Source: an uncultured Coriobacteriia bacterium
GTDB lineage: Bacteria > Actinomycetota > Coriobacteriia > Coriobacteriales > QAMH01
Length of the DNA stretch: 64,000 nt
Direction of reading: 5' to 3'
NCBI GenBank assembly: GCA_948466335.1
Contig: CAOKAE010000001.1
Location: 162,664-226,663, forward strand
The translations under genes were made by a program, and so were the position numbers. Below are positions 30,001 through 61,680 of the stretch, one piece after another. Position 1 is the stretch's first letter; each line of letters opens with the position of its first letter. The notes below the pieces were generated by a model, which saw nothing but the letters and a program-made list of their open reading frames with translations, was not told the origin of the DNA and ran no database searches.

Positions 30001-33000
30001 CCTTCTCCACCGTCATCGACGGCAAGACCTACACCACGACGGCCACGGGCATCATCGGCGCCGGCGGCGCCCTCAAGCTTACGCTCGTCTTCGCCGCGCA
30101 ACAAAACGACCTCATCTACGACGTGAATGCCGCCGAGGATGCGGCCAAGGGCAACGCCGGCTGGGTCATCTCCGACCAGTCGCCCAAGCCCGCCCCGCGC
30201 ACCGGAACCACCGTCACCTTGCCCGACGCCACGACGCTGTATCGCTTCGGCTACGTCTTCGGCGGCTGGAACACCATGGCCGACGGTTCGGGCGACACCT
30301 ATGCGGCCGGCGCGAGCTTCGTCACCGGCAACACCGCCCAGACGCTCTATGCCGTGTGGACGCCGGGCAACGCCGACTACTTCATCGACTACTACAAGGT
30401 GCGCGGCGATGGTACCGTCGAGCTCTATGATTCCGTGATCCTGACGGGAATCACGGAGCGGACCGTGACCGTCACCGACGAGCAGAAGAACTACCGCATT
30501 CCCGAGGGTTACGCCTACGCCGCCGGCCATAGCGGCGAGGTCCTTTCGGGCGTCGTTACCGGCTGGTCGGGCAACAGGGCGGGCGACACCTCGGGCGCGC
30601 TGCACCTTAAGCTCTACTACGAGCCCACCAACAGCACCGAGTACCGCGTCGTGCGCTGGGCTGCCACCGGTGACGGCAAGCTCGTGGCCGTCGACGCCAA
30701 CGGCAACCTCAACTTCGACATCGCCCTCGAGCCCACGGCCGACGGCAGGCTCGTGCAGCTCGACGCCAAGGGCAATCCCGTTGCCTGGCTCAACGCCGAC
30801 GGCACGCAGTACGTCATCACGTCCACCGAGCATCGCCAGGTGTTTGATGCCGACGGCAATCCCGTCCGACAGCCCGTGATCGGCGAGGACGGCAATCCCG
30901 TCAAGGACGAGAGCGGAAACGTCGTCTACGAGGACGTCTACGAGGACGTTACCGTCTACAACGTCCAGTACCGTTATTGGTCGCTTCTGCCCAACGGCTC
31001 CGTTGTCCCGCTGGACGTGGCCGGCATCGTCGACGCGACCTTCGGCGCGAAATTCCTCGATGGCAATGGGTGCATCACCTCCACGCTCGACGGCGTCACC
31101 TACCACCTGCCTGCGTTTGCCACGCCGTACCTCATCGTGCACGCCAACGGCAAGGCCGACGCCATGGCCAATGCCGCCGCGACGACCGATGAGGTCGCGG
31201 CCAATCCCAACGTCAACGCTCACGACAACGTCGCTATCCAGGGCTTCGAGTTCCTGGCGCACGGTTCCACGACGCGTCTGGGCGATGCCGCCGAGACCAA
31301 GGTCACGACCGTGGCCCAGGGCTCCATCGCCGCCGACGGCAGCCTCGTGCTCACGCTCTACTACTACGCGGTGCGCTCCATGCTCACCTTCGACCCGGGC
31401 ACCGGCGCCGATGGCACCACCGTGGGTAGCTGGTTCAATGGCGAGGACCTTTCGGCCGAGTACATGCCCAACGAGGTCGTGACGCTGCCCACCGGCACCA
31501 ACCTGCGCCGTCCCGGCTACACGCTCGCCGGTTGGACCACCATCAAGAACTTCGTCGAGAACATGGGGACAGACCCCCGCTTCTCGATCGGCTCCGACGG
31601 CGACAGCCTCGTGGGCGTCGCCATGGGCCAGACGGCCATCGACCTGCAGGCCTGGCTCGCGACGCTCGGTGGCCAGTACTTCACCACCACCTTCACGATG
31701 CCGCGCGGTGCGACCACGCTGTATCCGGTGTGGCTGCCGCGCAACGACACCGTCTACACCGTCGAGTACTACAAGCATCGCGGCGATGACACCGTCGTGC
31801 TCGATGCCACCGTCCAGTACACGGGCATGACCGATACGCTCGCCAAGGCCGGCCTCGTCTCCACGGGCATGATTGACGGCGTCGCGGTCGACGACGTGAA
31901 CCGCTACGGCACGGCGTTCTACAAGCTCGTCGACAAGGACGGCAATCCCGTCCTCACGGTGACCGACAAGAACGGCAAGGTCTGGATGGCGCTTCTCAGC
32001 TTCAACATCGCCGCCGACGGCTCCACCGTCCTCAAGGTCATCTACGAGGCCCAGGAAATCGACTACACCGTCATCTGGTACAAGTTCACCGGTAACGAGG
32101 CCTTCGTCGAGGCCAAGACCGAGACGCGCCGCGGCCTGGTCGACGGCCCCGTGTCGGTCACCGACGCCGACCTCAAGGTCGCCTTCGACGGCTACAAGTA
32201 CTATCCCGGCTTCTCGCTCAGGGGCCAGCGCGAGCTTCTCTCCGCCGACATCGCCTCCGACGGGTCCACCATCCTCAAGATCTTCTACGAGGCCCAGGAC
32301 GTCACGCTCTTCCTCGACCTCGGCAGCTTCGGCGCCTGGTCGGGCCAGGAGCACGACGCCGACAAGTACAAGGCCGACCGTACGGTCAAGCTCTCCACGC
32401 TCGTCGAGCGTCCCGGTTACGACTTCATCGGCTGGGCTTCCATCGCCGACGGCAAGGATACGAAGGGCAGCGCTTCGATCACGCTGGCCGATGCCATGGT
32501 CAAGGCGCTCAACGACGCCATCGCCGCCGGCACGACGACGCTCGACGCCAACGGCAACATCGTGTTCGCCTATGGCGGGTCCGGCATCACCCTCATTCTC
32601 GCGAGTGGCGACGGCAACTACACGCTCGGCGCCGTCAACGTCACGCTCTATGCGGTGTGGAAGGCGCGCAATGACAGCGTCTACACCGTGCAGCACTACC
32701 GCGTCACCGGCGACGGCACGCTCAAGCCGGTCATCACCGATACCTACACGGGCATCACCGACGATCCCATCAACGTCAGCGCCGAGCACTACGACTACGT
32801 GGCGGGCACGGGCAACACGGCGGGTAACGTCGCCGCGTTCCAGGGCTACGCCTACGCCCCCGGCTTCAGCAAGGTGATTGGGGGACAGACCCTCGCCGAA
32901 ATCGCTGCGGGCACGATCCTCGCCGACGGCTCCCTCGTGCTCAAGCTCTACTACGAGGCCATCGACCAGTCCATCACGCTCAACACCGGCGCGGGCGCGT

Positions 33001-36000
33001 GGAACGGCAGTGAGAACTTCTACAACGCCACTTGGAACGCGGACAAGACGCAGGGTGTCGACAACACCGTCAAGACCGAGACGACGCTCACCGTTCCGAG
33101 CCGCGATTCCGCTTCGCGTCCGGGCTACACGCTCGTCGGATGGACGACGATTACCACCTACGACATCGTGGGCGGCAAGATCACCGCCGGCTCGCGTTAC
33201 AACATCGCCGACGCGACCGGCCAGACCGCACGCGACGTGGTCGCGTGGCTCGAGAGTCTCAACGCCGCGCTCGCCGCCAATCCCATCACGGGGGGGACAG
33301 ACCCCAACGCCGGACGCCAGTACTTCGCCTGCGGCACCTCCTTCGTGCTGCCGGCCGGTGGTGCGACGCTCATCGCCGTGTGGCAGGCCAACACCAACAC
33401 GACCTACACCGTCGAGCACCATAAGCTCGTGATGGATGCCGCCGGCAACGTCGTCGACACGATCGTGCTCACCGAGAGCCTCACCGGCATCACCGACGAG
33501 CAGGTCACGGGCATCGCCCAGACCTACGCCGGCTACACCTTCGTGGCCAACGGGCAGACGGCCTACCCCGGCCAGGCCTACGTGACCTTCGCCCAGGGCA
33601 CCATCGCCGGTAACGGCAGCCTCGTGCTCAAGCTCTACTACAAGGCCAACACCAATACGAAGTACACGGTCGAGCGCTGGATCGCGAGCGCCGATGGCAA
33701 GCAGCTCACCAAGGTCGACGAAAAGGTCCTGACGGGCACCACTGACACCTCCGTCACGCCCGGCTCCACCAATCCGCTGGGCTACACCCTCGACAACAGC
33801 TTCGTGCCCTCCACGATCTCGGGTACGGGCGCCTGGCCCAACGCGGCCATTCCGACCGCCATCATCGCCGGTGACGGCACCACGAGGATCATCCAGTTCT
33901 ACGTGCCCATCGACGTGCTCTACACCGTCGAGTTCTACCGCTACACCGGCGACGGCAAGGTCCTGCCCTTCAACGGCTTCGAGGCGAGCGCCGGCAAGAA
34001 CTACGCCGAGTTCATCGCCGGAGGGTCTGTCCCCGTCTTCATCGCCGGCACCTCCACCGGTGCGGCCACCAACGTGATCAAGGGCTGGGGCAAGACCTCC
34101 TCGACGCTGTCGGTCGACCGTCCCGCCGGCATCAGCGCCTCGGCCGGATTCACCTACGCGCACCTCAACCTCTCGGCTGCCGAGAACGCCAACTTCATCG
34201 GCTACACCTATGACGAGACCTTCGAGCAGGTCATCGGTGGCGTCACGTACAAGACGGTCGCCCAGGGCGTCATCCTCGCCGATGGCAGCCTGGTGCTGAA
34301 GCTGTTCTACGTGCCCGAGACGCTCTCGGTCACCTACAACACCGGCAGCGCCTCCACGACGGTCACCTTCCAGAAGAACCACACGTCGGAGTCGACCTTC
34401 AAGCTGCCCCTCGAGACCACCGAGGGTCCGGTCGTTGACCGCGCCGGATACACGCTGGTGGGCTGGACCGTCGCGAGCCACTACACCGGGTCGGGCACGG
34501 CCGAGAGCCCGTTTGCGCTGGCCGCCGCCAACGCCGCCGGCGCCAAGTCCATCAGCGCCGCCACCGGCTACGAGGCCCAGCGCCTCGCCGTCTGGCTCGC
34601 AACGCTGGGGACAGACCCCGACTTCGCAACGCATTGGGGACAGACCCTCACGCCCGACCTGGCCGCCCAGATGGGCAAGACCTACTACGCCCAGGGCTCG
34701 TCCTTCAAGATCGGCGTGCTGTCGATGAACCTGTACGCGGTCTGGACGCCCACGGGCACCACCGAGTACACGGCCGACATCTACAAGATCAAGGGCGACG
34801 GCACGATGGAGCTCGTCGGCACCAAGACCTACACCAACGGCGTTGCCGACGAGGACACCAACACGCTGGCCAAGCTGCCCGCCCAGAGCAGCGCGGACGT
34901 CTACGACAAGTCGCTCGACACCGAGTTTGGCCTGGCCGGCTATCGCTGGGTCGCCTCCACCGAGGATGGCCAGACCATCGACGCCGGCATGCCGGCCAAC
35001 ACCATCGCCCACGCCATCGTCAACGCTAACGGCACCACCAAGCTCATCTTCATCTTCAGGGCCATCGAGGTCGAGTTCCAGGTCAAGCGCTACCGCGTCG
35101 ACGGTGACGGCAACATCATCGAGGTCGATGTCGACGGCAATGACATCACCGACGATGCCACCGCCAAGCGCTTCACGCACAAGGGCCTCACCGACGCCAA
35201 CGTCAACGTGACCGCCACGGCCGATGACATGGCCGGCACCGACGCCAGTGGCTTCAAGGGCGGCTGGTACTACTTCATCGACAACCTCGACAATGTCGGC
35301 ATGGTCACCGCCCTCGACGGCAGCCTCATCGCGGCCTTCACCTATGACGCGACCTACGCCGGCAACCTGTCCACGGGCGTCATCGCCGGTGACGGCAGCC
35401 TCGTCCTCAAGCTCTTCTACCTGCCCGGCAACTTCACCTTCGCGCTGGATCCCGGCGCCGGCACGTGGGGGACGGACCTCTTCGACGCGGCCCAGACCCA
35501 GGAGGGCACGCTCGAGACCACGACGAGCATCTGGTATCGCCACTACGGCGCCAGCACCACCATCACGCTTCCCACGGCCAGCGAGCTCACGCGCGAGGGT
35601 TACGTGCTCGCGGGCTGGATGGTCGGCAACGACGTCGAGAACGCGATGCGCTTCGACGTGCTCGGCCCGGTCATCACCTACACTATGCCGGTGGGCGAGG
35701 TCATGCTCAGGCCGATCTGGACCGGCCTCGAGACGGCCTACATGGTCTACCACGTCAAGGTGCGCGGCGATGGCACGCTCGAGTACTACATCGGCTCCAA
35801 CAAGGTGGCCGCCGGTACCGGCGAGATCGTCCGCGGCACCACCGGCCTGACCGCACAGGTGACCGCCAACAGCTACGCCGGCTACGAGGCCATCGCCGAC
35901 CTCGTGAGCTACACCTACATCGGCGCCGACGGCGTCAGCCACACGGTCACGACGGCCGCCAACGTGCTCATCGAGTGGGGCGGTGCCTTCGACGGCGTCA

Positions 36001-39000
36001 ACAAGGGCAAGACCGCGGTCTACATCTACTACAAGCCGCTCGTCGTGAAGTACATGGTCGAGCACTGGGCCATCTCCGGCGACGGCACGCTCTACGCCAT
36101 CGATGCGGACGGTAACCTCCTGCGCGACGCCAACGGCAACCTCGTGGCGAGCCCCAACGCCGTGCGTGGCGAGCACGAGGGCTACTCCGACGCCCACATC
36201 TACGTCCTGGGGTCTGTCCCCGCTGATGCGGTCGCGGGCACCTACACGACCTACAGCCCCTGGAGCATCGCCGGTTACGAGTACGTGCTCGGCGCCATCG
36301 CGAGCATCAACGGCAAAGGCCCGTGGACCGACGGCATGCTGACGAGCGGCATCTACGTCGCACCCGACGGCACGCTCGTCCTCAAGCTCTACTACGTCGC
36401 CAAGAACCTGACGCTCACCTACGATCCGGGCGCCAACGGCTCCATCACCGCCGGTGGCAATCAGGGGACAGGCCCCGTCGATGTCACGCATCGCGCCGAC
36501 CACACCTTCAAGCTGCCCGCGGCCACCGACGAGAAGCTCACCGTGAGCCGTCCGGGCTACGTGCTCAAGGGTTGGACGACGCTCATGAGCTACGGCGTCG
36601 CCGCTGATGGCAGCATCGTCTCGGCCGATACCGCCGGCGCTATCGTCAAGCTCATCGCCGACGCCAAGGGCGCCGAGGCCGAGGCCGTCATCGCCTGGCT
36701 CGAGAAGCTGGGGACAGACCCCCAGGGCCGTCCGTACTACTACCTCAACGGCGCGACCTTCCTCATGCCCACCGCCAACGAGACCCTGTACGCGGTCTGG
36801 ACGCCGCGCTCCGACATCGTCTACACCGTCGAGCACTGGCTCATCACCGGCGATGGCACCTTCTCGCCGCTGGACAAGAACGGCAACGTCATTCGCGACG
36901 CCAACGGCGCGCTCGTCACCGGCACGCCCAACACGAGCGCCGATGCCTCCGACACCACCAACGCGGCCTACCGCGTCACCTACAACAACGGCAAGTCCGA
37001 CGTCGTCTTCGACCTCGACGCCATCGGCGGCTACGTCCGCACGGTCGCCGGCTACACCTACCTGCTCAACAACGCGAGCTTCACCATCGCGGGCGCGACG
37101 GGCACCACCTACGCCGTGAAGACGATCAGCGCCGACGGCAAGACGGTCTTCTACCTGTTCTACCGTGCCAACGAGAACACGATCCGCTTCGAGGTCGGCT
37201 CGCTCGGCACCATTGACGGCGGCACGCTCGACGCGACCGAGAACGTCAACTTCATCACGCAGAAGCACTACACCGACGACAGCTTCGACCTGGCAGACGT
37301 TCCCACCCCGACGCGTCCCGGCTACGACTTCCTCGGCTGGACCATCGCCGACAAGAAGGGGACAGACCCCATCAACGACGCGATGGGCTACACCGCCCAG
37401 CAGATCGTCACCTGGCTCGAGGCCCAGAACGCGGGCAAGGGGACGTACCTCAAGCTGTTCTTCAAGTCGGGCACGAACTTCACCTACCTCACGCCGACCG
37501 GCGACATCACCCTGCGCGCCGTGTGGACGCCGCAGCTCGTCGACTACACGATCAACCGCTGGAAGGTCACCGGTAACGGCGACAAGGTCGAGCTCGACTC
37601 CGTCACCTACAAGGGCTACGCCGATACCGAGGTCCGCTTCGACGCCGCCAAGACCGAGTACAAGGACGGCATCACCTACCTCAAGGTCGACGTGCCCACG
37701 GGCTATCGCTTCCTGGCCGCGGGCACGAGCGAGATCTACACCGGCACCAACAAGCTGACCCAGTCGTTCAGGACCGACGCCTACGGCAACGTCCTTCCCA
37801 ACGGCACGGCGAAGTTCACGCTCTGGTACCTGCCGAAGACCTTCAAGCTCGAGCTCGAGCTCGGCACCCTGGGCACCTGGAACGACACCACGACGGGCAC
37901 CAACACCGGCACGCTGAAGACCGTCGAGTATGACGCGGAGTCCGTCCACGAGATGCTCGGCTACCTCTCCGCGAGCCGTCCGGGCTACACGCTCGTTGGC
38001 TGGTCGTCCAGCGACTTCAGCGCGCTCAAGGGAGAGGCGTCGCAGGCCAAGTGGCTCGAGCTCGCCGCCTCGGCCGTCGGCGCGGACTGGGTGCGCGTCA
38101 CCACGGTCCTGAAGTCCGACGCCACGGGCACGTCGCTAACCGGCTACACCTACGCCTACATCGCCAACAGCTACGAAAACATCAAGTACATGTACACGAT
38201 GGGCCTCGCGGGCGTGAAGTTCTACGCCGTGTGGCGCGCCAACGACGACACGGTCTACTACGTCGACCACGTCCGCTGGGAGGGCAACAGCACCGCCAAG
38301 ACCACCATCACCGAAGAGTTCCGCGGCATGACCGACAAGAACTACACGGCCGCCCCGTTCAACACCATGCTCGCCGATCCGCGCTACAACACCAGCTTCA
38401 CCGGCTACGGCTACAACGGCACGGATCCCAAGCCCAGCACGGCCACGAAGGCGGTCACCGGCGACGGCACCATGCGCATCACGCTCAACTACTTCGCCCA
38501 GAAGCTCAACCTCACGCTCGAGTCCACCGGCGGCACCTGGTCGACGACCTGGAATCCCGAGCACCTGACCGAGTCGAGCTTCAACCTGCCGACCAACGCC
38601 GACATCAAGCGCCCGGGCTACACGCTCGTGGGCTGGTCGACCACCAATCCCGACGATGGCCTGACCGGCAACATCAAGGGCCTCGCCTCGCAGGTCAAGG
38701 CCGGCCAGCTCGCGGCGATCACCGGCAACGACACCGCCAACGGCGGCGCCAACTGGATCACGGTCGCCACGACCTCCGACGGCAAGACCTACGTCTTCGT
38801 CACGCCGGGCTACAAGATGCCAACGAGGGGACAGACCCTGTACGCCGTCTGGTACGCCAACAACGACACGAAGTACGCGGTCGAGCGTTGGGTCGTCTCC
38901 GGTGACGGCGTCCGCTACGCCCTCAAGGCCGACGGCACGCTCGAGCGCGATGCCAACGGCCTGCTCGTGACCAGCGACAAGGCCGACAGCGCCCATTCGC

Positions 39001-42000
39001 TGAGCTACGTGGGCACCACCGACGAGGAGGCGTGGGCCGACGCCATCGATGGCTCCATCGTCTACCGCACGAACGACACCCTGCTCACCATCACTGGCTA
39101 CGCCTACGCCGCCGATGGCGAGACGATCGTCGCCAAGGACGGCGTCGTGACGATCGGGGGACAGACCCTCAAGACCGACGCCCGCGCGACCATTACCGGC
39201 GACGGCAAGATGACCCTCGTGCTCTACTTCAAGCCGCTGCAGTTCACGCTCGACTTCTACATCGGCGCGACGAGCACGCCCAACCTGAGCGCCACGCCGG
39301 CACGGGCCACGCTCTATGCCGACCAGACCTACACGCTGCCCACCTCGACGGTCACGCGTAGCGGCTACACGCTCAAGGGCTGGACGAACAGCCAGTACGC
39401 GAGCACTGTCGATGCGGCCACGATCATCTCCGACCTCAAGGGCATCAAGTCCCAGAACGCCTACACGGCCGTGAGCGCCAGCACGGGCCGCGATGCTGTG
39501 ACCGGCAAGGTCTTCACCGCCGTGACAAGCGGGGGACAGACCCTCTACATCATGCCGACGGGCAACGTGACGCTCTACGCCACCTGGCGCGCCAACGACG
39601 ACACGCAGTACCTTGTCGAGCGCTGGGTCGTCTCCGGCGACGGCACCCGCTATGCGGTCACCTCCGATGGCAAGCTCGTCCGCGATGCCAACGGCAAGCT
39701 CGTGACCAGCTCGGCTGCCGATGCGAACCACGTCGTCAAGCACGTGGGCATCACCGATGAGGAGGCCTGGGCCGACGCGAACGTGGCCGGAACGAGCTAC
39801 CGCAACGACGATTCCGCGCTCACCTTCGCCGGCTACGCCTTCGCGGCCAACGGCGAGACGGTCATCGCCAAGGACGGCGCGACCGCCTTCACCACCATCG
39901 CCCGCAAGGTCATCACCGGCGACGGCAAGATGGTCCTCGTGCTGTACTACAAGCCCAAGCTCAACACCATCACCTTCAACTTCGGCAGCGGCACGAGCAC
40001 CGGCGCGCCCGCGACGATGCAGGTCTACACCGACCAGACCGTCGAGCTGTCCGCCGATGCCGAGCGCACGGGCTACGACCTGGTCGGCTGGTCCAACGTC
40101 CCGACCTACAGCGTGAAGGTCGACGGTGCCGCCACGGCCGCGACCGTCAACGTCGGCACCTCCAAGGGCCTGGCTTCCCAGGCCGCCGCTGATGCGGCCA
40201 AGGCCAACACCAAGCGCACCTCCGACAAGGGCGCCGCCTTCACCGCCGTGACGATCGGGGGACAGACCCTCTACATCATGCCGACCGACGCGAGCATCAC
40301 GCTCTATGCCACCTGGCGCGCCAAGTCCGACACCGTCTTCTACGTCGACCGCTACAAGGTCACCGGTGACGGCGTGGTCGTGCCCATCGACGCGAACGGC
40401 AAGGACCTCGCGGCCCTCGTCTCGCTGCGCTTCACCGGCGTCACCGACGAGACCGCCACCGCCGGCGCCAAGAGCGGCCCGAAGCCCTGGAACACCGCCG
40501 CCTACGGCGCCCTGGCCGGCTACTACACGATCGCCAACGGCACGAGTGACCGCGTCATGCTCAAGGACGGCAGCGGCTACGTCGTCATGACCACCATCAG
40601 CGCCGGCGTCATCGCCGGTGACGGCAGCCTGCACCTCGTCGTCTACTACTTCCCGCTGGCGGACCGCGTCCTCGACCTCGACGTCGGCGACGGCACCTGG
40701 GAGCCCGGCAAGGAATCCCAGTACAGCGGCAACAAGCACGCCACCGAGTCGAGCTTCACGCTGCCCACCAACGCCGACGTCAAGCGTCCGGGCTACACGC
40801 TCGTGGGCTGGGCCATCGACAAGAACGGCCTCATGGCCGCCGGAAAGGACACCGCCAAGGGCGCGGCGTCGCAGCAGTCCTACCTCACGCTCGCCGCCGG
40901 CAAGACCGGCTACATCGCCGATGGCGGCGCCGAGTGGATCGCCGTGATCTCCGGCTACGATGCGTCGACCTTCACCTACACCTTCATCGGTGCCGATGAC
41001 GTCATCTACGTCATGCCCACGAACGCCAAGGTCATGCTGCGTGCCGTGTGGCGCGCCAACGACAACACGCCGTACTACGTGTCGCGTTGGGGCATCAACG
41101 GCGACGGCGTCGCCTTCCCGTTCAAGCAGGACGGCACGGTCGACATGAACGGCGACCAGATCGTGATCCATGACGATCCCGCGTGGATCAAGGCCAACTA
41201 CGTCGTCCATTACGGCATCACCGACGAGATCGCCTGGGCCGATGCGAACGTCGACGGCGTCTCCTACCGCAACGCCGACAACATCGAGGTGAACGGCTAT
41301 AGGTACCTCCCGACCGACGATCCCGCGTTCGACTCGATCGGCGGCAACCTCAACACGATGGCCCGTGCGGTCATCAAGGCCGATGGCAGCATGGTGCTCA
41401 TGCTCTACTACAACGCCAAGGACAACATCACCTACTCCGTCTACCACGTGCGCGTCACCGGTGACGGTACGGTCAAGAACCTCGTCAAGCAGGAGTTCAT
41501 GAAGAAGAACAACTCCTACGTCACCGTCGACAACCTTGATTACAACGGCCTCGACGACAGCCGCTTCCTCGGCTACGAGTACGTCGACTCCATCGTCATC
41601 AACGGCGTCACCTACTACTCGCATATTGCCGGTAACGTCTACGACGGCCTCATCCTGTATCGCTACTACAAGGCCATCTACGACGAGGGCGACAAGGGCA
41701 TCCACCTCGAGCTCAATCCCGGAATGGGCATCTGGGTGAACACCGGCGAGTCCACGCCGTCGATGATCCCCGGCACCTCGAACAGCTCGCACGACACCTT
41801 CGCCGCCGAGACCACGATCACGCTTCCGGGCGCCGACCAGCTCTACCGTCCCGGCTACGAGTTCGTCGGATGGTCCGACATGCCCGACGGTGCGGATGCG
41901 AAGGGCAACTACTCCGTGATCACGTCCGACCACCTGATGAGCGTCGATCCCGAGACGGGCCAGTACACCGACGTGCTGCGCGCCCTCATCATGAGCCTGC

Positions 42001-44096: not shown

Positions 44097-44116
44097 CAAG
44101 CCGGGGACGATAGGCG

Positions 44117-44214
44117 GGGGACAGACCCTCCGCTTCATCCGCCGGCGAAAGAATGGGGACAGACCCTCCAATTGCAGCTTCCGTATCCGCCGGTGAAAGA
44201 ATGGGGACAGACCC
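44117..44214 (+). repeat. REP-like array, 3 forward copies, starting 21 nt after the giant-gene stop
   Basis: Cores at 44117-44128, 44155-44166 and 44203-44214. The 30-nt units 44137-44166 and 44185-44214 (atccgccgg[c/t]gaaagaatGGGGACAGACCC) differ at one base. Confidence 0.9.
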
Positions 44215-45005: not shown

Positions 45006-45032
45006 AAGAGCCCCTTCCTGGGGCTCTTTTTT
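45006..45032 (+). terminator. Rho-independent terminator
   Basis: AAGAGCCCC (45006-45014), a 5-nt loop, then GGGGCTCTT (45020-45028) running into a T6 tract. It lies 19 nt after the 44334..44987 stop. Confidence 0.8.
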
Positions 45033-45073
45033 CGTGCCATCAACCAGGAGTCTCAAATGGGGGTCTCAAATGG

Positions 45074-45130
45074 GGGTCTGTCCCCCTATTGCCACCTGCC
45101 AGCCGAAGCCTTGATCGGGGGTCTGTCCCC
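45074..45130 (-). repeat. REP-like pair, 2 reverse copies upstream of the RAYT-type gene
   Basis: GGGTCTGTCCCC at 45074-45085 and 45119-45130. Both are followed by the reverse complement of the second arm (ctattgcca / tcattagca). They are preceded by a 13-nt tandem partial duplication at 45051-45076. Confidence 0.9.
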
Positions 45131-45299
45131 TCATTAGCATCGGGGCAGTGGAGGCATGGCCGTATCTGCATTTACTCGGAAACCGCTCCGTTTCCACTTC
45201 GATTGATGTCCGAGATTGCTCAGATTCCCGGGGTGGTTTGCTCGGATGTTTCCGATGTAGTCTGTTTCCGCAGAAGACCTGACGGAAAGGAGGTGCAGT

Positions 45300-46097
45300 G
45301 TGCCGCGCCAGCCACGCAGACAATCGTCAACCGGGTATTACCACATCACGAATCGCGGCGTTGGCAAAGCGCGCGTCTTTAGCGACGGCAACGACCACTC
45401 GTTTTTCATAGATTGCCTGCGACTTGCGCAGCGGGTCTGTCACTTCAGGGTTCTCGCATATTGCATAATGACCACGCATTTCCACATCGTCATCAAGTGT
45501 GAGGGCGCCGTTCCAACACCCCTTTTCCAGAGCATAGGAGCACGATTCTCGGCCTATTACCATAAGAGGCACAAATGCTCTGGGCAAATATTCCAGGGTC
45601 GTTTTCGCAGCGAGGCCATCGAGACGGACAGGCACCTTCTCTCTGCGATTCGCTATGTATGGCGCAATCCCGTCAAGGCCCACCTCTGTTCCTACCTGGC
45701 CGCCTATCCGTGGAGTAGCTACAATTGCCTGGGCAAATCGGGTGGCTTGATCGACGACGAGCTCCTTTGCAGCTTCATGAGTGCCGATGAGTGGCGGGCC
45801 TTTGCGTTGCAGGAGACGGACGGCCGTCATCTCGAGCCCTTCCCTCTGCGACTGTCGGACAGTTTCGCTCGGAAACTGGTCCGTGAGGAATGTCGACAGT
45901 TTGGCGATGTGCCGAGGGATGCTCTTGAGAAACCAGAATGCCCTCCTGCACTTGCTATGTGCTTGGATGCGGGGATGACCGTGGCGCAGATTGCCAGAAT
46001 CCTGAACATCGCCGCAACTGGTATGTATCGTGCATTGCGTAAATGGGGTCGGCAGGTTCCGAGGGCATGCACTCTCGAAGCGTCGAGTAGTCCGTAA
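45300..46097 (+). CDS. IS200/IS605-like HUH Y1 transposase of the REP-associated tyrosine transposase (RAYT) type, with a C-terminal HTH extension
   Basis: GTG start 6 nt after AAGGAGG (45287-45293). N-terminus PRQPRRQSSTGYYHITNRG..RVF...DHSFFIDCL. HUH motif in VLAYCIMTTHFHIVIK. GQIFQGRFRSEAIETDRHLL. Catalytic-Tyr motif AIRYVWRNPVKAHL...YPWSSY. C-terminal MTVAQIARILNIAATGMYRALRKWG looks like an HTH. Confidence 0.85.
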   Translation: MPRQPRRQSSTGYYHITNRGVGKARVFSDGNDHSFFIDCLRLAQRVCHFRVLAYCIMTTHFHIVIKCEGAVPTPLFQSIGARFSAYYHKRHKCSGQIFQGRFRSEAIETDRHLLSAIRYVWRNPVKAHLCSYLAAYPWSSYNCLGKSGGLIDDELLCSFMSADEWRAFALQETDGRHLEPFPLRLSDSFARKLVREECRQFGDVPRDALEKPECPPALAMCLDAGMTVAQIARILNIAATGMYRALRKWGRQVPRACTLEASSSP

Positions 46098-46191
46098 TCA
46101 GGCAAACAATCGGGATTGACCGCCCCGTCCCTCGAAAGATTTGGTACTCTGTCGAATAACAAACCAATTAACCTTTCGAGAGGATAATAAA

Positions 46192-47528: not shown

Positions 47529-47614
47529 GGGGACAGACCCTCTTGTGCCGTACGTAATAATTCGGGGACAGACCCCCGACAATAGGAGGATACCGACAAT
47601 AAGGGGACAGACCC
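47529..47614 (+). repeat. REP-like array, 3 forward copies
   Basis: Cores at 47529-47540, 47564-47575 and 47603-47614. The third has the arm ccgacaataa. Confidence 0.9.
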
Positions 47615-47731
47615 CCGAATTCGACCCCCGAATCCCCGCCCTCAAGCCCTCTCGAGCTCATGGGATGGCCGTCTCCTCCGCATTGTCGCGCTGGGTATAA
47701 TTGCCTCGACAAAACCGTTTCGAGGAGACCG

Positions 47732-48561
47732 ATGTCCGCCCAAACTCCAGATGAGAAGTACGACGCCTTGGTCATTCGCCTTCGTTCCCTCAAAAACGTG
47801 GCGGTCGCCTTTTCGGGCGGCGTTGACTCCACGTTGTTACTGCACGCCGCGCACGAGGCGCTTGGCGATAGGACGGTTGCGATTACGGCGCGATCGCGCC
47901 TTTTCCGCAACGCGAACTCGACGAAGCCGTTGCGTTTTGCAATGACCGCGACATTCCGCACGTCATCGTCAACACGCACGAGCTCGAAGACGAGATGTTC
48001 CGGCAAAATCCGCCCAATCGTTGCTATATCTGTAAAACGGGGCTACTGCGCGCCGTTATCGACGTCGCGAACGGGCGCGGGGTCGACCATATCGTCGAAG
48101 GGTCTAACACTGACGACGAGAGCGACTATCGTCCAGGTGCGCAGGCAATACTCGAGCAGGGGGTGATGAGCCCGCTCAAGGACGCTGGTCTTTCAAAGCG
48201 CGAGATACGTGATTTGTCGCGAGAGAAGGGTCTTCCCACCTGGAGCAAACAGTCATTTGCGTGTCTTGCCTCGCGCTTTGCGTTCGGTGAGGTCATTAGC
48301 GAGGAGCGCCTTGGCATGATCGACGCAGCGGAGCAGATTCTTCTCGAAAGGGGAATTCGACAAGTTCGCGTGCGCTTTCATGGGGCAATCGCGCGTATCG
48401 AGGTGCAGCCGGATGATTTCGCGCATCTTGTCGATTCGGATGTTCGAGAGGATGTTATCCGAAACATCAGGGCGCTTGGATTCAAGTATGTGACGCTTGA
48501 CCTTGGAGGCTACCAGACAGGCAGCATGAACATGACAATTGGGGGACAGACCCTCAACTGA
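47732..48561 (+). pseudogene. LarE-like PP-loop ATP pyrophosphatase / sulfur transferase (COG1606 type) interrupted by a -1 frameshift
   Basis: The upstream frame (ATG 47732, RBS GAGGAG) gives VAVAFSGGVDSTLLLHAAHEALGDRTVAITARSRLF. The downstream frame, open from 47872, gives PFPQRELDEAVAFCNDRDIPHVIV...NPPNRCYICK...DYRPG...FACLASRF...VRVRFHGAIARIEV...YVTLDLGGYQTGSMN. Adding one C at about 47905-47906 (ttcc_gcaa) fuses both frames into a 276-aa protein. Confidence 0.8.
48542..48553 (+). repeat. REP-like copy forming the last codons of the larE-like gene
   Basis: catgacaattgGGGGACAGACCCtcaactga is translated MTIGGQTLN-stop. Both the arm and the core are present. Confidence 0.9.
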
Positions 48562-49172: not shown

Positions 49173-49207
49173 CTTCATTCCGCAAGATGATGGGTGGGTG
49201 ACAAGAG

Positions 49208-49328
49208 GGGGACAGACCCCCTCTTCGTGCTGGCCCCCCATCCCGCGCACCTCCAAGCGCCTGCTCGACTTGGGGCCGAGCAATCGCGCGTTGCGGTTCT
49301 CCCTGCGTAACAATATGGGGACAGACCC
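49208..49328 (+). repeat. REP-like copies, 2 forward
   Basis: Cores at 49208-49219 and 49317-49328. The first sits in a 9-bp perfect palindrome, aagaggggg-ACAGA-ccccctctt (49203-49225), with the arm gtgacaag. Confidence 0.9.
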
Positions 49329-50774: not shown

Positions 50775-50813
50775 GCGCCGAAGGGGGTCCGCCTCCTTCG
50801 GCGCCTTCTTTTT
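50775..50813 (+). terminator. Rho-independent terminator after tig
   Basis: GCGCCGAAGG (50775-50784), a 10-nt loop, CCTTCGGCGC (50795-50804), then cttcttttt. Confidence 0.8.
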
Positions 50814-50824: not shown

Positions 50825-50969
50825 GGGGACAGACCCTTCCATACCATCGCAGGCGAAAACCGGGGGACAGACCCCTAACTCCGACTCCGGGGTCCCATTC
50901 GTGACAGCTAGGGGACAGACCCCGCGAACCGATTCCATGAGCCGACCCCGCAAATCGGGGGACAGACCC
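50825..50969 (+). repeat. REP-like array, 4 forward copies
   Basis: Cores at 50825-50836, 50863-50874, 50911-50922 and 50958-50969. Spacings are 38, 48 and 47 nt. Confidence 0.9.
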
Positions 50970-51095: not shown

Positions 51096-51521
51096 TCAGT
51101 CCCTCACTTCGAGGAGCTTGACCCAGTACACGATGTCCTTGCCTGCGAGAGGGTGGTTGAAATCGATGGTGGCCACCTGGTTCTCAACGCTCACCACCTT
51201 TGCCGGAATCGGCTCGATATTGCGCGGGGAGGTCCATCCGATGTACTCGCCAACAGGCAGGTTTTCACCATTGGGAACCTTGTAGGTGGGGAAATGCTGC
51301 ACGGCGCTCTCATCGTATTCGCCGTAGGCGTCGGCTGCGGCGAGCTCGACGGTGCGCTCCTCGCCCGGCTCCATGTCGAGCAAGGCGTCCTCGAGGGCCT
51401 TCATGACCTGACGTCTGCCGAGGACGATCTCGTGGGGCGCGCCTCCGCAGTCATCGAAAACCTCGCCGTCGGGAAAGCTGCCGCGATACAGAAAGCATGC
51501 GGTCTGTCCTTTGTCTGCCAT
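51096..51521 (-). CDS. FKBP-type peptidyl-prolyl cis-trans isomerase (SlyD-like)
   Basis: 141 aa from ATG 51521 (MADKGQTACFLYRGSFPDGEVFDD...EIVLGRRQVMKALEDALLDMEPGEERTVELAAADAYGEYDESAV...IDFNHPLAGKDIVYWVKLLEV). The ORF-track start 51644 is an unlikely extension. Confidence 0.75.
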   Translation of the reverse strand: MADKGQTACFLYRGSFPDGEVFDDCGGAPHEIVLGRRQVMKALEDALLDMEPGEERTVELAAADAYGEYDESAVQHFPTYKVPNGENLPVGEYIGWTSPRNIEPIPAKVVSVENQVATIDFNHPLAGKDIVYWVKLLEVRD

Positions 51522-51585
51522 GCCGGTCCTTTCGTTGCGCAGGCAGCGTCGCGAAAGACGCCTCTGCTCGTTCGAGGATGGTTGT

Positions 51586-51750
51586 CTAGTGCCAGCGCTG
51601 CGAGGTGAGGAAGAATCCCTCGACGGGCTTGATCTCGCTGTCATCGTCGACGAGATCGGCGGCGAGCTCCTCGGCGTTGTTGCAGATTGCGCTCACGGGG
51701 GCTTCGATCTCTTCGACCTCTGTCTCTTCGGTAATCTTCTCGTCAGCCAT
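51586..51750 (-). CDS. Small acidic protein (54 aa, hypothetical), not in the ORF track
   Basis: ATG 51750-51748 follows GGAGAGGAAACC. It translates to MADEKITEETEVEEIEAPVSAICNNAEELAADLVDDDSEIKPVEGFFLTSQRWH-stop (TAG 51588-51586). High GC3, same strand as the PPIase gene and 64 nt upstream of it. Confidence 0.45.
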   Translation of the reverse strand: MADEKITEETEVEEIEAPVSAICNNAEELAADLVDDDSEIKPVEGFFLTSQRWH

Positions 51751-51984: not shown

Positions 51985-52047
51985 GGGTCTGTCCCCGGAT
52001 TATCAACATCATCCCATGGCGAAGGTCGTGACGAAGGGTCTGTCCCC
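51985..52047 (-). repeat. REP-like pair, 2 reverse copies in the divergent intergenic region
   Basis: GGGTCTGTCCCC at 51985-51996 and 52036-52047. Confidence 0.9.
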
Positions 52048-52079: not shown

Positions 52080-53363
52080 GTGATTCGAAACGTCGATGGT
52101 GATTCCGGCGCAAGCGAAGGTGCGCGGAGGTACCAGAATCCGGTGCTCGTGGGCATCGTCTTGCTCGTATCCGGAATATCGGTGGCGATGATCCAGTACA
52201 AGGTCCCCACCATCATGACGAATCTCATGGGCATCTTCTCGATGGATGCGGCGACAGCCTCGTGGCTCATGTCGGTCTTCACGCTCGTGAGCATCTTCGT
52301 CGCGTTGCCCGCGGGCGCCCTTGCACAGCGTTTTGGCGCCAGGCGGATGCTCGTTGTCGCATGTGGCATCGTCATCCTCGGTTCGCTTGTCGGCCTTGTC
52401 TCCGAAACGAGCCCGATGCTCATCGTTTCGCGGGCGATCGAAGGCGCCGCGCTTACCATCCTCACGACATGCGGGCCGATTATCGTTCAGCAGAACGTGA
52501 GTCCCGAGAAGGTCGGCACCTCGATGGGCATCTGGGGCATCTGGGGATGTCTCGGGTCCACCGTCGCGGCCGTTCTCACGCCGACCGTTTTCGGCATGTG
52601 GGGATTTGACGGCCTCTGGATCGCGTTTGCCGTGGTCAGCGGCGTTGCGGCTGTCCTCGTCCTGGTCTTTATCCGCAAGCCTCCGTCCGCCCCTGCAGCG
52701 CCCGAGGGTCTGTCCCCCGATCGCCATGCGCCCCAGGGGTCGTCTCAGGGGTCTGTCCCCGCAATGTCAGGTGAGGCAACGATTGTCGAGAAGCCTCGCT
52801 ATCGCGACATGTTCTCCAAAGACATGTTCCTGTTCTTCGGGGCCTTCGTTGTCTACAACATCTGCATGCTCGCGATTCTGGCGTTCGTCCCCACGATTCT
52901 GCAGATGCAGGGCTTCGACCCGACGCTCTCGGGCATCATCAGCACGGCGCCCATGTTGCTCTCGATCATATCGTCGCCGCTCTTCGGAGTCGTCTCCGAC
53001 AAGATCGGCCGCAACAAGCCGCTGCTGATCATCGCCATGCTCGTCATGGGTCCCTGCACGTTTTTGCTCTACACGCAGACCGGGCCGTTGCTCTGGGTGG
53101 GCGTCTTCGCGATGGGACTGCTCGGCATGGGCGGCATCGGCCAGTATCTCTCGGGATTCACGAAGCTGCTGCCGAGTCCCGACCTCGCGTCGGTGGGCAT
53201 GGGAGTGCTCGTCACGTTTCAGGGCGTCGGTCAGTTCCTCGGCACGTTTTTCGTGCAGATGCTTCTGGGGCCGCAGCTGACCGAATGGTGGTTTGCCGGC
53301 ATGGTGCTCATGCTTCTCGGCTTCGTCGGCACGGCGCTCATCGCCCTGTGCAAGCTACGGTGA
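52080..53363 (+). CDS. MFS transporter
   Basis: GTG 52080 follows AGGAGGA. 427 aa with about 12 hydrophobic helices in two halves. MFS loop motif ALPAGALAQRFGARRM between helices 2 and 3. Confidence 0.85.
   Translation: MIRNVDGDSGASEGARRYQNPVLVGIVLLVSGISVAMIQYKVPTIMTNLMGIFSMDAATASWLMSVFTLVSIFVALPAGALAQRFGARRMLVVACGIVILGSLVGLVSETSPMLIVSRAIEGAALTILTTCGPIIVQQNVSPEKVGTSMGIWGIWGCLGSTVAAVLTPTVFGMWGFDGLWIAFAVVSGVAAVLVLVFIRKPPSAPAAPEGLSPDRHAPQGSSQGSVPAMSGEATIVEKPRYRDMFSKDMFLFFGAFVVYNICMLAILAFVPTILQMQGFDPTLSGIISTAPMLLSIISSPLFGVVSDKIGRNKPLLIIAMLVMGPCTFLLYTQTGPLLWVGVFAMGLLGMGGIGQYLSGFTKLLPSPDLASVGMGVLVTFQGVGQFLGTFFVQMLLGPQLTEWWFAGMVLMLLGFVGTALIALCKLR
52706..52760 (-). repeat. REP-like doublet (reverse) translated inside the MFS central loop
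   Basis: GGGTCTGTCCCC at 52706-52717 (read as GLSP) and 52749-52760 (read as GSVP). The reverse complement carries the arm ctgacattgc. Confidence 0.9.
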
Positions 53364-53369: not shown

Positions 53370-53416
53370 GGGGACAGACCCCTGGCTGTCCGGACTGACA
53401 ATGAGGGGACAGACCC
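53370..53416 (+). repeat. REP-like doublet (forward) immediately after the MFS stop
   Basis: Cores at 53370-53381 (arm gtgacaatgc) and 53405-53416 (arm ctgacaatga). Confidence 0.9.
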
Positions 53417-55242: not shown

Positions 55243-55391
55243 GGGTCTGTCCCCTTATTTTTCCCTTCGCATTTCCCCCGGCTGACAATCAGGGGACAGA
55301 CCCTCACGCATCATGCTGACAGTCGGGGGACAGACCCCGTCGTGTCCCGTCGTGTCGACATGCCCGCGTTTGACAGCCGGGGGACAGACCC
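55243..55391. repeat. REP-like cluster: 1 reverse copy then 3 forward copies
   Basis: Reverse copy at 55243-55254, 2 nt after the luxR-type stop. Forward copies at 55292-55303 (arm ctgacaatca), 55326-55337 (ctgacagtcg) and 55380-55391 (ttgacagccg). Confidence 0.9.
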
Positions 55392-60009: not shown

Positions 60010-60357
60010 ATGACGGCCTACGGTCTGCTTATCGATTACGAGTTCTGCACGGGCTGCCAGTCTTGCGAGGTCGCGTGCAAGGAGATTCACAACATCCCCG
60101 TGGGGCAGTGGGGCATCCGCGTGCTTGACGATGGTCCCTGGGAGTGCTCGGACGGCAAGTTCAACTGGAACAAGATTCCGACCCCGACCCGCCTGTGCGA
60201 CCTGTGCGTGGAGCGCACGGACAAGGGCCAGCAGCCCTTCTGCGTGCATCACTGCCTGGCCGGCGTCATGCAGTGGGGCACGGTCGAGGACCTTGCCAAG
60301 GAGCTCGAGGAGAAGCCCAACCAGGTGCTCTTCGTGCCCAAGCCCTACCAGTACTAG
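60010..60357 (+). CDS. Small 4Fe-4S cluster protein (electron-transfer subunit)
   Basis: The ATG abuts the upstream TAG. 115 aa with CTGCQSCEVACK and CDLCVERTDKGQQPFCVHHC Cys motifs. Confidence 0.75.
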   Translation: MTAYGLLIDYEFCTGCQSCEVACKEIHNIPVGQWGIRVLDDGPWECSDGKFNWNKIPTPTRLCDLCVERTDKGQQPFCVHHCLAGVMQWGTVEDLAKELEEKPNQVLFVPKPYQY

Positions 60358-60399
60358 CGGGAAGACGGCGTCTCGACCGAGGCGCGCGGGTGATAGGCG

Positions 60400-60521
60400 G
60401 GGGACAGACCCTCACGCATCACGAACGTCGCGGTTGGCAAGAAGGGGACAGACCCTTTCGTAAGAAGGCGGGGGACAGACCCCTTCGCGCCAACCGCAGG
60501 TGAGAAAGAGGGGACAGACCC
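60400..60521 (+). repeat. REP-like array, 4 forward copies between the Fe-S and chaperone genes
   Basis: Cores at 60400-60411, 60444-60455, 60471-60482 and 60510-60521. The 22-mer gataggcgggggacagaccctc (60392-60413) is identical to 44109-44130. The 22-mer ggggacagaccctcacgcatca (60400-60421) is identical to 55292-55313. Confidence 0.9.
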
Positions 60522-60560
60522 CCACGCGTCATCCGCGAAGCGAGCGAGGACGGAATTTCG

Positions 60561-61268: not shown

Positions 61269-61585
61269 CGACCGACCACGGCCCGGACGGGCGCAACTGG
61301 AACAAGAACGAGGTTGAGTATGACCTCGGCGTCGCCGGCCCCGGCCAGAGCATCGTCATAACCATCACCCGTTCCGTCGCGGTCAAGATCATGGACCACG
61401 ACAGCTACGAGCTCTACAAGGCGGGCGAGGACTGCAAGGCCTTCTCGGGCCAGCTCACCTCGTCGCCGTACCGGTTCAAGCTGCCGCGCGAGGCACGATG
61501 GCACGTGATCATCAATCCCCACACCTATTCGGGCACCGCCGAATTCAGCGTTCGTCTCATCGACGACGAGGTGCTCGACGGCTAG
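61265..61585 (+). CDS. DUF1883-like small protein
   Basis: ATGA overlap with the chaperone stop. 106 aa. YDLGVAGPGQSIVITITRSVAVKIMDHDSYELYKAGEDCKAFSG...SPYRFKLPREARWHVIINPH..SGTAEFSVRLI matches my recollection of the DUF1883 pattern (YDLG...V.V.L...A.V.LMD..N...Y..G....Y.GG...SP..L.IP..G.WHVV.D). Confidence 0.55.
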   Translation: MTTDHGPDGRNWNKNEVEYDLGVAGPGQSIVITITRSVAVKIMDHDSYELYKAGEDCKAFSGQLTSSPYRFKLPREARWHVIINPHTYSGTAEFSVRLIDDEVLDG

Positions 61586-61595
61586 GGGGAAATCG

Positions 61596-61680
61596 GGGGA
61601 CAGACCCTCGATTGCCGTCGGTGACAAAGAGGGGACAGACCCCCATCGACCACCGCCGGTGACAAGTGGGGGACAGACCC
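61596..61680 (+). repeat. REP-like array, 3 forward copies between the DUF1883-like gene and the second molybdoenzyme
   Basis: Cores at 61596-61607, 61631-61642 (arm gtgacaaaga) and 61669-61680 (arm gtgacaagtg). Confidence 0.9.

Follow-up and report, generated by a model that had tools for sequence, protein, structure and literature searches.

A 64 kb stretch of DNA from an uncultured member of the Coriobacteriia (the window, taken at its full length) was found to carry 47 exact copies of the 12-nt word GGGGACAGACCC, 38 on the plus strand and nine on the minus strand, spanning 31565-61680. These copies, here called cores, probably belong to a repeat family, GGGGACAGACCC(C/T), that is cognate to, and dependent on, a REP-associated tyrosine transposase (RAYT; REP, repetitive extragenic palindrome) encoded in the same window at 45300-46097. 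This reading is drawn from sequence comparison, by which the repeat family and the RAYT gene are seen to co-occur and to co-diverge between genomes.

The exact recount agrees with the preliminary description of this DNA, in which the 47 copies, their division between the strands and the C or T that follows each of them had been noted by eye; the 13th base is C in 26 of the 47 copies, T in 21 and A or G in none. The expectation that far less than one copy would arise by chance was also borne out, none being present in any of 100 dinucleotide-preserving shuffles of the window and a Markov model predicting 0. Permitting up to two mismatches added four sites in the window, compared with 9.75 expected by chance, and between 31.5 and 64 kb the sites with none, one, two and three mismatches numbered 47, 1, 2 and 50 against 0, 0.03, 1.3 and 19 under a third-order Markov model. 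These counts indicate that GGGGACAGACCC is hugely over-represented and almost never decayed. The T-variant, GGGGTCAGACCC, is absent from the window (0 copies). The cores are distributed very unevenly, with none between 1 and 31564, 15 in the last 12.5 kb of a giant open reading frame (ORF) and, as was described earlier, 32 in the ~20 kb to the right of it, the density from 44 to 64 kb being 1.6 per kb. Thirty of these 32 are non-coding. The claim that nearly all of them are intergenic has two exceptions, a pair of in-frame copies in a major facilitator superfamily (MFS) transporter gene and one copy overlapping the 3' end of a LarE-like gene.

The cores are arranged in arrays of two to four copies with start-to-start spacings of 27-54 nt. 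In 12 of the 13 multi-copy clusters all copies point the same way, the exception being one inverted junction at 55243(-)/55292(+); the arrays are direct rather than alternating, as had been noted before. The first core of an array lies no more than a few tens of bases from a stop codon or an intrinsic terminator (e.g. 45006-45028 and 50775-50804); most are sense relative to the upstream gene and many lie beyond an intrinsic terminator. Nearly all genes of the window are on the plus strand, and the GC skew is dominated by the giant gene. A second conserved arm, GTGACAA, had been attributed to about two thirds of the copies, which was an overstatement: it is exact in five of the 47 and within one mismatch in 14, always 3 nt 5' of the core, and is better described as a degenerate consensus, TGACAA at -9 to -4, with a per-position conservation of 57-87%. 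This arm is confined to the Eggerthellaceae, while the 12-mer and the C or T that follows it are the general part across phyla. The spacer said to be shared between arrays, CATCCGCCGG, occurs a single time, and both of the 22-nt identities linking distant arrays (44109-44130 with 60392-60413, and 55292-55313 with 60400-60421) are exact. Degenerate tandem units of 9-14 nt, each opening with CCC(C/T) and otherwise locus-specific, are often situated 3' of the last core of an array; such CCCY-N tandem tails follow 25% of terminal cores and 3.8% of background CCCY sites (p = 3e-12), a count that takes in orthologous arrays, so that the cases are not independent. A polarity of arrays, with T-type 13th bases first and C-type last, was seen in several arrays of the window and was rejected after it failed in two related lineages (L120 and L215, below).

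The gene at 45300-46097, on the plus strand, encodes a predicted Y1 HUH protein of 265 aa with the motifs H60-F-H62, FQ and Y119-VWRNP and a C-terminal helical or helix-turn-helix (HTH) tail. The protein matches NCBIfam REP_Tyr_transpos with an E value of 8.9e-20 (71.1 bits, below the cut-off of 80), Pfam Y1_Tnp with 21.5 bits (just below the cut-off of 23) and, at residues 222-249, HTH_7 with an E value of 5e-4 (20.5 bits, below the Pfam cut-off). H60, H62 and Y119 are invariant across 43 homologs. An AlphaFold (AF2) model of the protein, with a pLDDT of 83 and helices across 187-249, had as its best PDB match by Foldseek 4ER8, the E. coli TnpA-REP bound to a REP hairpin (E 1.4e-7, TM 0.78), followed by the TnpA proteins of IS608 and ISDra2. 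The motifs in the window are THFH (T for N, the N being the majority residue of the homologs), IFQGRF and YVWRNP, those of the family consensus being NHxHLV, HLFQxRFRSE and RYVHxNP; homologs carry PF08299, PF13384 or PF12802, and many proteins of the subgroup end in a conserved ...(E/S)PSP or SSSP tail past the HTH region. A two-mismatch relative of the core, AGTGACAGACCC, is located at 45433-45444 (minus strand) within the RAYT coding sequence and is compatible with chance (~1.3 expected per 32 kb).

These features fit a RAYT of subclass 2.1 of the TnpA-Y1 proteins (TIRYT, Group 1 RAYT). Subclass 2.1 has the motifs NH[YF]H or NHVH, W[EQ] or FQ, and Y[IV]HLNP or YIELNP (Table 1, PMC6006769), together with a C-terminal HTH-type extension (Bac_DnaA_C, HTH_23 or HTH_28) and a median length of ~238 aa (Quentin et al. 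2018, PMC6006769); it corresponds to the Group 1 RAYTs (PMC5581495) and to most TIRYTs (PMC3733652). For the inverted repeats that flank TIRYT genes, Di Nocera et al. (2013) described a common GGGGWSAS, and some of the flanking repeats were moderately abundant families in dimers or clusters (PMC3733652). Both GGGGACAG (the A-core) and GGGGTCAG match GGGGWSAS. The system had earlier been taken to be undescribed, and this holds in part: the protein class and the 8-nt flank consensus are already published, and the core fits the published flank motif (PMC3733652), while in the literature searched neither a hyper-abundant exact 12-13-mer, the head-to-tail architecture and exact-or-absent dynamics, nor a one-base family switch, a natural loss lineage, presence in Coriobacteriia and letter-for-letter conservation across phyla was found. 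A text search of the literature for the core, the T variant, GGGACGGTTC and their complements returned only unrelated primers, the supplements of Di Nocera et al. held no matching sequence (PMC3733652), and Rfam gave no match for the whole window at gathering thresholds. No REP-like sequences were reported for subclass 2.1 (Quentin et al. 2018, PMC6006769), and the 16-mers flanking Group 1 genes had only ~12 occurrences (Bertels et al. 2017, PMC5581495). Neither a count of 16-mers nor a search for hairpins would be expected to pick up a core of 12 nt whose flanks vary. The present findings contradict the published view of subclass 2.1/Group 1 RAYTs as proteins without cognate repeats.

The relationship between the repeat and the gene was assessed in six syntenic Eggerthellaceae lineages, with density expressed as cores per kb right of the giant gene. 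Among the relatives, L120 is from ERZ15609935, L122 from GCA_949879855.1, L125 from GCA_964435565.1 and L129 from ERZ27243641. Relatives of the trigger factor of the window at ~60% identity are named Eggerthellaceae or Adlercreutzia; the host is therefore taken to be an uncultured lineage of the Eggerthellaceae, which accords with the Coriobacteriia-type host that had been suggested. The order giant gene, 217-aa gene, RAYT and MoeA onwards is common to the contigs of the relatives, and the RAYT gene is syntenic in five other lineages. The window (RAYT identity 100%) has 1.61 cores per kb, L122 (95%) has 2.50, L120 (79%) has 1.76 and L215 (61%) has 1.76, all of them the A-core. Altogether the exact core is retained, at 1.8-2.5 per kb, by four relatives with a RAYT 61-95% identical to that of the window. 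In L125, whose RAYT is 52% identical, GGGGACAGACCC is absent (0 copies) and the T-core alone is present, with 17 copies of GGGGTCAGACCC in 17.8 kb. These occupy the same gaps between genes, and their density over the region that corresponds to the window is 1.33 per kb. In L129 the syntenic site is without a RAYT, the ~1.05-kb RAYT cassette being absent between the terminator of the 217-aa gene and MoeA, and its density is 0.07 per kb; one core, an A-core, was present in the 21.3 kb seen, and this is the ortholog of the core at 49317. The suggestion that motif abundance would follow the 45300-46097 homolog across genomes is thus supported, with 1.3-2.5 cores per kb in five RAYT-bearing syntenic lineages, and the word is not equally abundant in the relative that lacks the gene at the syntenic site.

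At the protein level L129 is close to the window (MoeA 91% and trigger factor 88% identical), compared with 85% and 83% for L215 and 82% for the MoeA of L125, and these identities place L129 nested among the RAYT-bearing lineages. The simplest reading of these sequences would be that L129 lost the RAYT and with it the repeat family. When 45040-46100 of the window is compared with 6957-7166 of L129, a clean indel of ~1.05 kb is seen that comprises the RAYT together with the two cores upstream of it; on its right the indel is bounded by a conserved stretch ~60 nt 5' of MoeA, and there is no core at this right-hand boundary. Among more distant Eggerthellaceae loci, L130-L132 had no core and no RAYT in view. 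The two-core antisense arrangement upstream of the RAYT recurs in L120, L122, L135, L136 and L215. L135, a contig of 1,678 bp from ERZ777306, carries a RAYT 100% identical to that of the window with two antisense upstream cores, and is probably the same organism from another sample or assembly.

Comparison of the window with L120 gave a column identity of 95.6% in cores, 86.9% in coding DNA and 73.4% in intergenic DNA, and in intergenic DNA within 25 nt of a core the identity was 62.9% with 38% gaps. The DNA beside cores therefore diverges faster than other intergenic DNA. Twenty-four of 34 cores of the window align to an exact core in L120; of the remaining 10, six fall at gaps, two are misaligned beside an exact core and two, both in the giant gene, are substituted. 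It follows from this alignment that intergenic cores are either exact or absent. Copy number is also variable between close relatives. In the L122 lineage, which was also read as locus L039 and is ~95-98% identical to the window, the 53370 array has four copies (L039) against two in the window, with an 87-bp indel, and the 55292 array has five plus-strand cores (L039) against three. The 44117 array has three copies in the window, five in L122 and two in L120, and the 50825 array four in the window, two in L120 and none in L129.

To determine the wider distribution of the word, a scan in which each species was represented by a single genome was made for pairs of cores separated by 20-50 nt, and this yielded at least 119 loci of 8 kb. 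Among the matches listed were loci from Planctomycetota (Stieleria, Rhodopirellula, Phycisphaera), Verrucomicrobiota, Kiritimatiellia, Lentisphaerae and Treponema, from Gaiellales, Conexibacteraceae, Propionicimonas, Streptomyces, Lachnospiraceae, Niallia and Bacillus, and from Burkholderiales, Gammaproteobacteria and Acidobacteriota. The GC content of the listed loci ranged from 0.31 to 0.76, and most held head-to-tail arrays with locus-specific spacers, some with 15-17 units at a 21-nt period. In five of the 119 listed loci a RAYT homolog was also present, its ORF being separated from the cores by roughly 45-260 nt; these loci have a GC content of 0.40-0.70 and include a Treponema metagenome-assembled genome (MAG; L033), a Kiritimatiellia locus (L005) and an actinomycete MAG (L041). 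In three listed loci (L094, L033 and L088) cores were located on both sides of the RAYT homolog, and in L088 a clear inverted core pair lies within a longer palindrome. Such adjacency appears to be far above chance for a gene of low copy number.

Further observations were made on individual loci of the scan. In the planctomycete loci L070, L082, L045 and L090 (Stieleria, Phycisphaera and others) 10-17 cores follow one another with a strict period of 20-21 nt, the spacers being only 8-9 nt long, and L021 (Burkholderiales) has tight inverted core pairs with a 3-nt loop that would form perfect 12-bp hairpins. L059 was rejected as a repeat array, being a coincidental coding PGTDPGTNP repeat, and carriage by phages was rejected on finding a core pair in only two of 2.9 million viral contigs.

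A second word was associated with metagenomic relatives of the RAYT. Among 80 such relatives, 48 were accompanied by GGGACGGTTC(C/T), two by the A-core and seven by other words of the GGGGWSAS type, and 23 had none in the available sequence. GGGACGGTTC(C/T) is typically placed in plus orientation ~63 nt upstream of the start codon and in minus orientation just past the stop, on contigs of 33-60% GC; the loci concerned are the metagenomic RAYT relatives L137-L214, and also L126, L127 and L128. GGGACGGTTC fails position 7 of the GGGGWSAS consensus, and both the A-core and the GGGACGGTTC classes are able to form a 4-bp G/C mini-hairpin. A generalization to the whole of subclass 2.1 is advanced here as a tentative proposal that may well not hold: its cognate repeats would be very short mini-hairpin words of at least two classes, GGGG(A/T)CAGACCC(C/T) and GGGACGGTTC(C/T), each conserved letter for letter across many phyla, and in some lineages the enzyme, rather than moving REPIN-like doublets, would rewrite exact words in place, grow arrays from local sequence, overwrite near-matches in genes and purge decayed copies. 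If this were true, repeats would be propagated and homogenized by rewriting in place, in a mode of its own that depends on the RAYT.

For the window itself the following sequence of events is proposed. The RAYT would recognize the 12-13-nt word, the form recognized being probably a mini-hairpin (G4/ACAGA/C3-4) of the single strand, and the C-terminal HTH tail may aid this recognition; the first base of the loop, which is the base switched in L125, is for that reason proposed to be the one read by the protein. Cutting and rejoining at or beside the word would seed copies, mostly just past stop codons and terminators and sometimes in frame within genes, and the same chemistry would gain and lose array units, giving head-to-tail arrays, spacers of local sequence and CCCY-N8-10 tails. 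Such local gain and loss would leave hypervariable surroundings and differences in copy number between strains; with only the exact word as a substrate and a fast turnover of units, standing copies would be exact or absent, and where the RAYT is gone the repeat family would collapse. Binding, cleavage, recognition of the single strand and the mechanism of duplication are steps that we infer, and the specific way in which arrays are proposed to grow is possible rather than probable.

Several observations weigh against dependence of the repeat on this RAYT, or against the course proposed. The core hairpin, of G3-4:C3-4 with a 5-nt loop, has a folding energy of -2.9 kcal/mol in the C form and -2.0 kcal/mol in the T form and is no better than shuffles; extension of the stem into the flanks in the window amounts to 0.72 pairs against 0.80 under the null, the pooled loci of other phyla giving a modest excess (1.22 vs 0.95 pairs). 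The RAYT of the window has cores upstream only, the next downstream cores lying beyond MoeA, and the cores upstream of the RAYT in L125 are oppositely oriented. In a rough neighbour-joining tree of the catalytic domains, which carries no support values, the RAYTs associated with the A-core did not group as a single clade. L129 retains almost no decayed remnants of cores, so that the arrays were either deleted cleanly or expanded after the split, and the absence of a RAYT from L129 covers the syntenic site and ~21 kb of genome, a copy elsewhere being possible. The in-gene differences described below are substitutions whose direction is not fixed, and they go beyond what transposition alone would give. 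The exactness of the cores could come from host selection rather than from turnover. Lastly, we know of no biochemistry on any subclass 2.1 protein.

The most durable alternative is that host selection keeps the arrays, for protection of RNA 3' ends, for termination of convergent transcription or as a binding platform for a nucleoid or regulatory protein, with the RAYT as a historical source or as a domesticated, non-catalytic binder. We regard this as unlikely, although it accounts for a number of the observations. Cores stay exact while their flanks fall to 63% identity; arrays are situated just past stops and terminators and are mostly sense to the upstream gene; the opposite strand of core and arm would form a weak terminator-like 5-bp stem followed by the T-rich TCTTTGTCAC, and the antisense core at 55243 lies in a 9-bp terminator-like hairpin after the LuxR-type gene. 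The RAYT gene, too, is syntenic and apparently vertical, as domesticated genes are, and the core at 49317 is exact in L129, which lacks the RAYT. Against this, L129 keeps the genes, their order and the terminators with essentially no arrays, from which it appears that the arrays are dispensable for the neighbouring genes. Close relatives differ freely in the number of copies that an array holds, many arrays are situated past an intrinsic terminator, the folding of the arrays is no better than that of shuffles, and the change from A to T throughout the family follows the divergence of the RAYT.

A drive that needs no transposase, through biased gene conversion or repair or through slippage in replication, would make the linkage to the RAYT incidental. 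Biased repair has been proposed for HIP1 of cyanobacteria. A process of this kind would suit the in-gene substitutions that keep the amino acids (GGC TCC GTC CCC against GGG TCT GTC CCC, both encoding GSVP), the patch of ~24 nt in L120 without an indel, and the satellite-like arrays of 21-nt period in Stieleria and Phycisphaera. This reading is improbable. Cores occur beside RAYT homologs in distant phyla, and the family has gone where the RAYT has gone from the syntenic site; the word is non-palindromic and identical at 31-76% GC, unlike a host-specific repair bias, and slippage alone would be unable to seed one word at many separate loci.

An uptake signal, enriched through natural transformation, and a compositional artefact had both been offered in the preliminary description as alternatives, and the 12-mer across phyla, the tandem arrays and the very uneven distribution disfavour them. 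Uptake signals are lineage-specific, as with the DNA uptake sequence (DUS) of Neisseria and the uptake signal sequence (USS) of Pasteurellaceae; they are scattered rather evenly, singly or in inverted pairs, and close relatives have them in common. The density of ~1 per 1.4 kb is near that of the 12-nt DUS, and the copies within genes, in several frames, in both orientations, with rare codons, exact and seldom decayed, would also be expected of such a signal. It is nevertheless very improbable here: arrays of the 12-mer are found in Planctomycetota, Spirochaetota, Bacillota, Pseudomonadota, the Planctomycetes-Verrucomicrobia-Chlamydiae phyla and Actinomycetota; there are 0 copies in 31.5 kb against 32 in 20 kb, with arrays of up to 17 units; and the word is almost absent from L129, a close relative. 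An artefact of composition or coding, for which some cores encode VTIGGQTL in paralogous Flg_new modules and the L059 match was a coding repeat, is next to impossible, because shuffles and the third-order Markov model predict 0 copies, 30 of the 32 right-hand copies are non-coding, and the peptides of the giant gene occur, with rare codons, only where the DNA word is present.

With RAYT dependence still preferred, the family can be set beside known systems. The criteria used for a REP/RAYT system (REPtron) were those reportedly meant by Nunvar 2010, Bertels & Rainey 2011 and Ton-Hoang 2012. In common with the canonical systems (TnpA-REP of E. coli, REPINs of Pseudomonas) there is a low-copy HUH Y1 gene and a very abundant, mostly extragenic short repeat, with co-divergence of repeat and RAYT, occasional in-frame loop insertions and clustering after genes. 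Identity with a canonical REP, bacterial interspersed mosaic element (BIME) or REPIN was nevertheless rejected, and the REP/BIME-like nature earlier ascribed to the element was not upheld: there is no GT[AG]G tag, the hairpin is marginal with a stem not beyond G4:C4, the arrays are direct, and whole arrays in the window are no more structured than shuffles. Nor is there a 20-40-nt imperfect palindrome, an inverted doublet, an alternating BIME order or a cloud of mutated copies around a master sequence, and canonical REPs differ between species whereas the present core is identical across phyla.

TIRYTs and TIRtrons share with the system the Y1 HUH core, an NH[YF]H-type HUH, FQ, Y[IV]xxNP, a C-terminal HTH and a length of ~240-265 aa, as well as the fit of GGGGACAG to the GGGGWSAS flank consensus. 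They differ in that an exact 12-13-mer, hyper-abundant at 1.3-2.5 per kb, takes the place here of a pair of terminal inverted repeats, that it forms head-to-tail arrays with variable spacers from local sequence, and that the gene of the window is not bracketed by inverted copies; also, Group 1 has been judged the most IS-like of RAYT groups, whereas the gene here is syntenic and vertically inherited. The TnpA proteins of IS200/IS605 share the catalytic fold, through the Foldseek matches to IS608 and ISDra2 TnpA. IS608 and ISDra2 cut and rejoin single strands at small hairpins, and by analogy the same chemistry would be expected here. In contrast to IS200/IS605, the gene is at a single syntenic locus, lacks both a tnpB partner and a defined left and right end, and goes with a repeated unit of 12-13 nt.

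The DUS of Neisseria and the USS of Haemophilus are short, exact, non-palindromic words at ~1 per kb that also occur within genes in several frames, and in these respects they resemble the core; tandem arrays, identity across phyla, linkage to a RAYT, absence from a close relative and uneven distribution set the core apart. MIRU units of mycobacteria resemble it in their head-to-tail intergenic arrays in an actinobacterium and in a copy number that varies between strains, and differ in being 40-100 bp long, in lacking a 12-nt core that stays invariant between loci or phyla and in having no associated HUH gene.

RAYTs are the textbook domesticated transposases of bacteria, and work on them has centred on the REPIN-carrying groups of proteobacteria. 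Subclass 2.1/Group 1 is the largest and most widespread RAYT group, and its reported lack of repeats had left its function without a handle. The present locus offers a candidate substrate of 12 nt, a one-base switch of specificity, a natural knockout lineage and near-identical strains with differing arrays, and the activity of this class of enzyme thereby becomes directly testable. Families with very short exact cores are overlooked by k-mer and hairpin screens. The repeats are able to reshape proteins, for which the loop of the MFS transporter, the C-terminus of the LarE-like protein and the giant adhesin are examples, and they could serve as markers for strain typing in gut Eggerthellaceae.

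Reading from left to right, the first cores of the window are the 15 (13 on the plus strand and two on the minus strand) at 31565-43006, in the Flg_new-rich last third of the giant ORF. A 3-copy direct array at 44117-44214 (+) starts 21 nt past the stop of this ORF and is followed by a degenerate tail. Just past the 217-aa gene and its terminator are two cores at 45074-45130 (-), antisense to the RAYT and 170-226 nt 5' of its start. A 3-copy direct array at 47529-47614 (+) lies just past the MoeA terminator, with a tail of tandem units of the CCCCCGAAT type, and the single core at 48542-48553 (+) supplies the last codons of the LarE-like ORF (...MTIGGQTLN*) and is followed by a tail of 13-nt period. 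The single core at 49208-49219 (+) is at the tip of the 9-bp hairpin at 49203-49225, which had been noted before and is real (-10.5 kcal/mol, z -2.7); that at 49317-49328 (+), 5' of the trigger factor, is the sole core kept in L129. Directly past the trigger-factor terminator (50775-50804) is a 4-copy direct array at 50825-50969 (+).

A 2-copy array at 51985-52047 (-) lies just 5' of the MFS start (52080), in the gap after the minus-strand ORF 51096-51644, and a 2-copy in-frame array at 52706-52760 (-) encodes the peptides GLSP and GSVP in the central loop of the MFS transporter. The upstream arm GGTGACAA of the 2-copy array at 53370-53416 (+) supplies the TGA stop codon of the MFS gene (53361-53363). 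At 55243-55391 (mixed strands) the antisense core in its terminator-like 9-bp hairpin after the LuxR-type gene is followed by a 3-copy direct array. A 4-copy direct array at 60400-60521 (+) lies past the gene for a 4Fe-4S subunit, and a 3-copy direct array with clear GGTGACAA arms at 61596-61680 (+) lies past the DUF1883 gene.

The giant ORF, at 39-44096 on the plus strand, has 14,685 codons, with DUF285 and BspA-type leucine-rich repeats in its first 5,000 aa, Flg_new repeats in its last third and, at its end, what looks like a sortase signal (PRTGD, a hydrophobic stretch and RRRR). The GC content steps from ~0.60 to 0.66 near 18 kb. Three reading frames are used by the cores within it, which give GTDP, G(G)QTL and GSVP, and the exact core encodes seven of the eight GTDP, all six GQTL and both GSVP tetrapeptides of the ORF, none of which is found in the first 10,500 aa. 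The codons of the core, e.g. GGG, ACA and TCT, are rare in the giant ORF. The restriction of these peptides to sites of the DNA word indicates that the word drives the peptide and not the reverse.

Among three genomes the in-gene differences at cores are substitutions, with no indel. In L120 a 24-nt patch comprising arm and core stands where the window has unrelated codons, again with no indel, and gene conversion between paralogous Flg_new modules could be its source. For the substitutions at 36210 and 38827 the L120 versions use commoner codons and could be decayed copies; with no outgroup for these changes, conversion towards the motif is not claimed. Position 42962 of the window corresponds roughly to 7657 of L125, which is no more than suggestive of orthology between in-gene cores of the two.

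In the central loop of the MFS transporter an alignment of proteins showed an in-frame insertion that measures 14-18 aa in three genomes (the window, L120 and L122) and 42 aa, with four cores, in L215, and that is absent from L129; a 12-nt in-frame indel separates the arrays of the window and the L122 lineage. The end of the LarE-like ORF, ...MTIGGQTLN* in the window and ...GGQTPN* in L122, differs at the 13th base only, and the protein of L129 has a different end with no core at that site. The gene itself, for a LarE-like ATP-dependent sulfur transferase (47660-48561, plus strand), is read as two overlapping ORFs, a T-run near 47900 being one base shorter than in the 95%-identical L122. In L122 the gene is intact, with 276 codons, and the split in the window is either a frameshift pseudogene or an assembly error.

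The plausible genes to the right of the giant ORF encode, in order, the 217-aa membrane protein, the 265-aa ORF at 45300-46097, MoeA, the LarE-like protein, a DUF2510 protein, the trigger factor, an FKBP isomerase (minus strand), the MFS transporter, a membrane LuxR-type regulator, a second MFS transporter, a molybdopterin oxidoreductase with its 4Fe-4S subunit and a TorD-like chaperone, and the DUF1883 protein.

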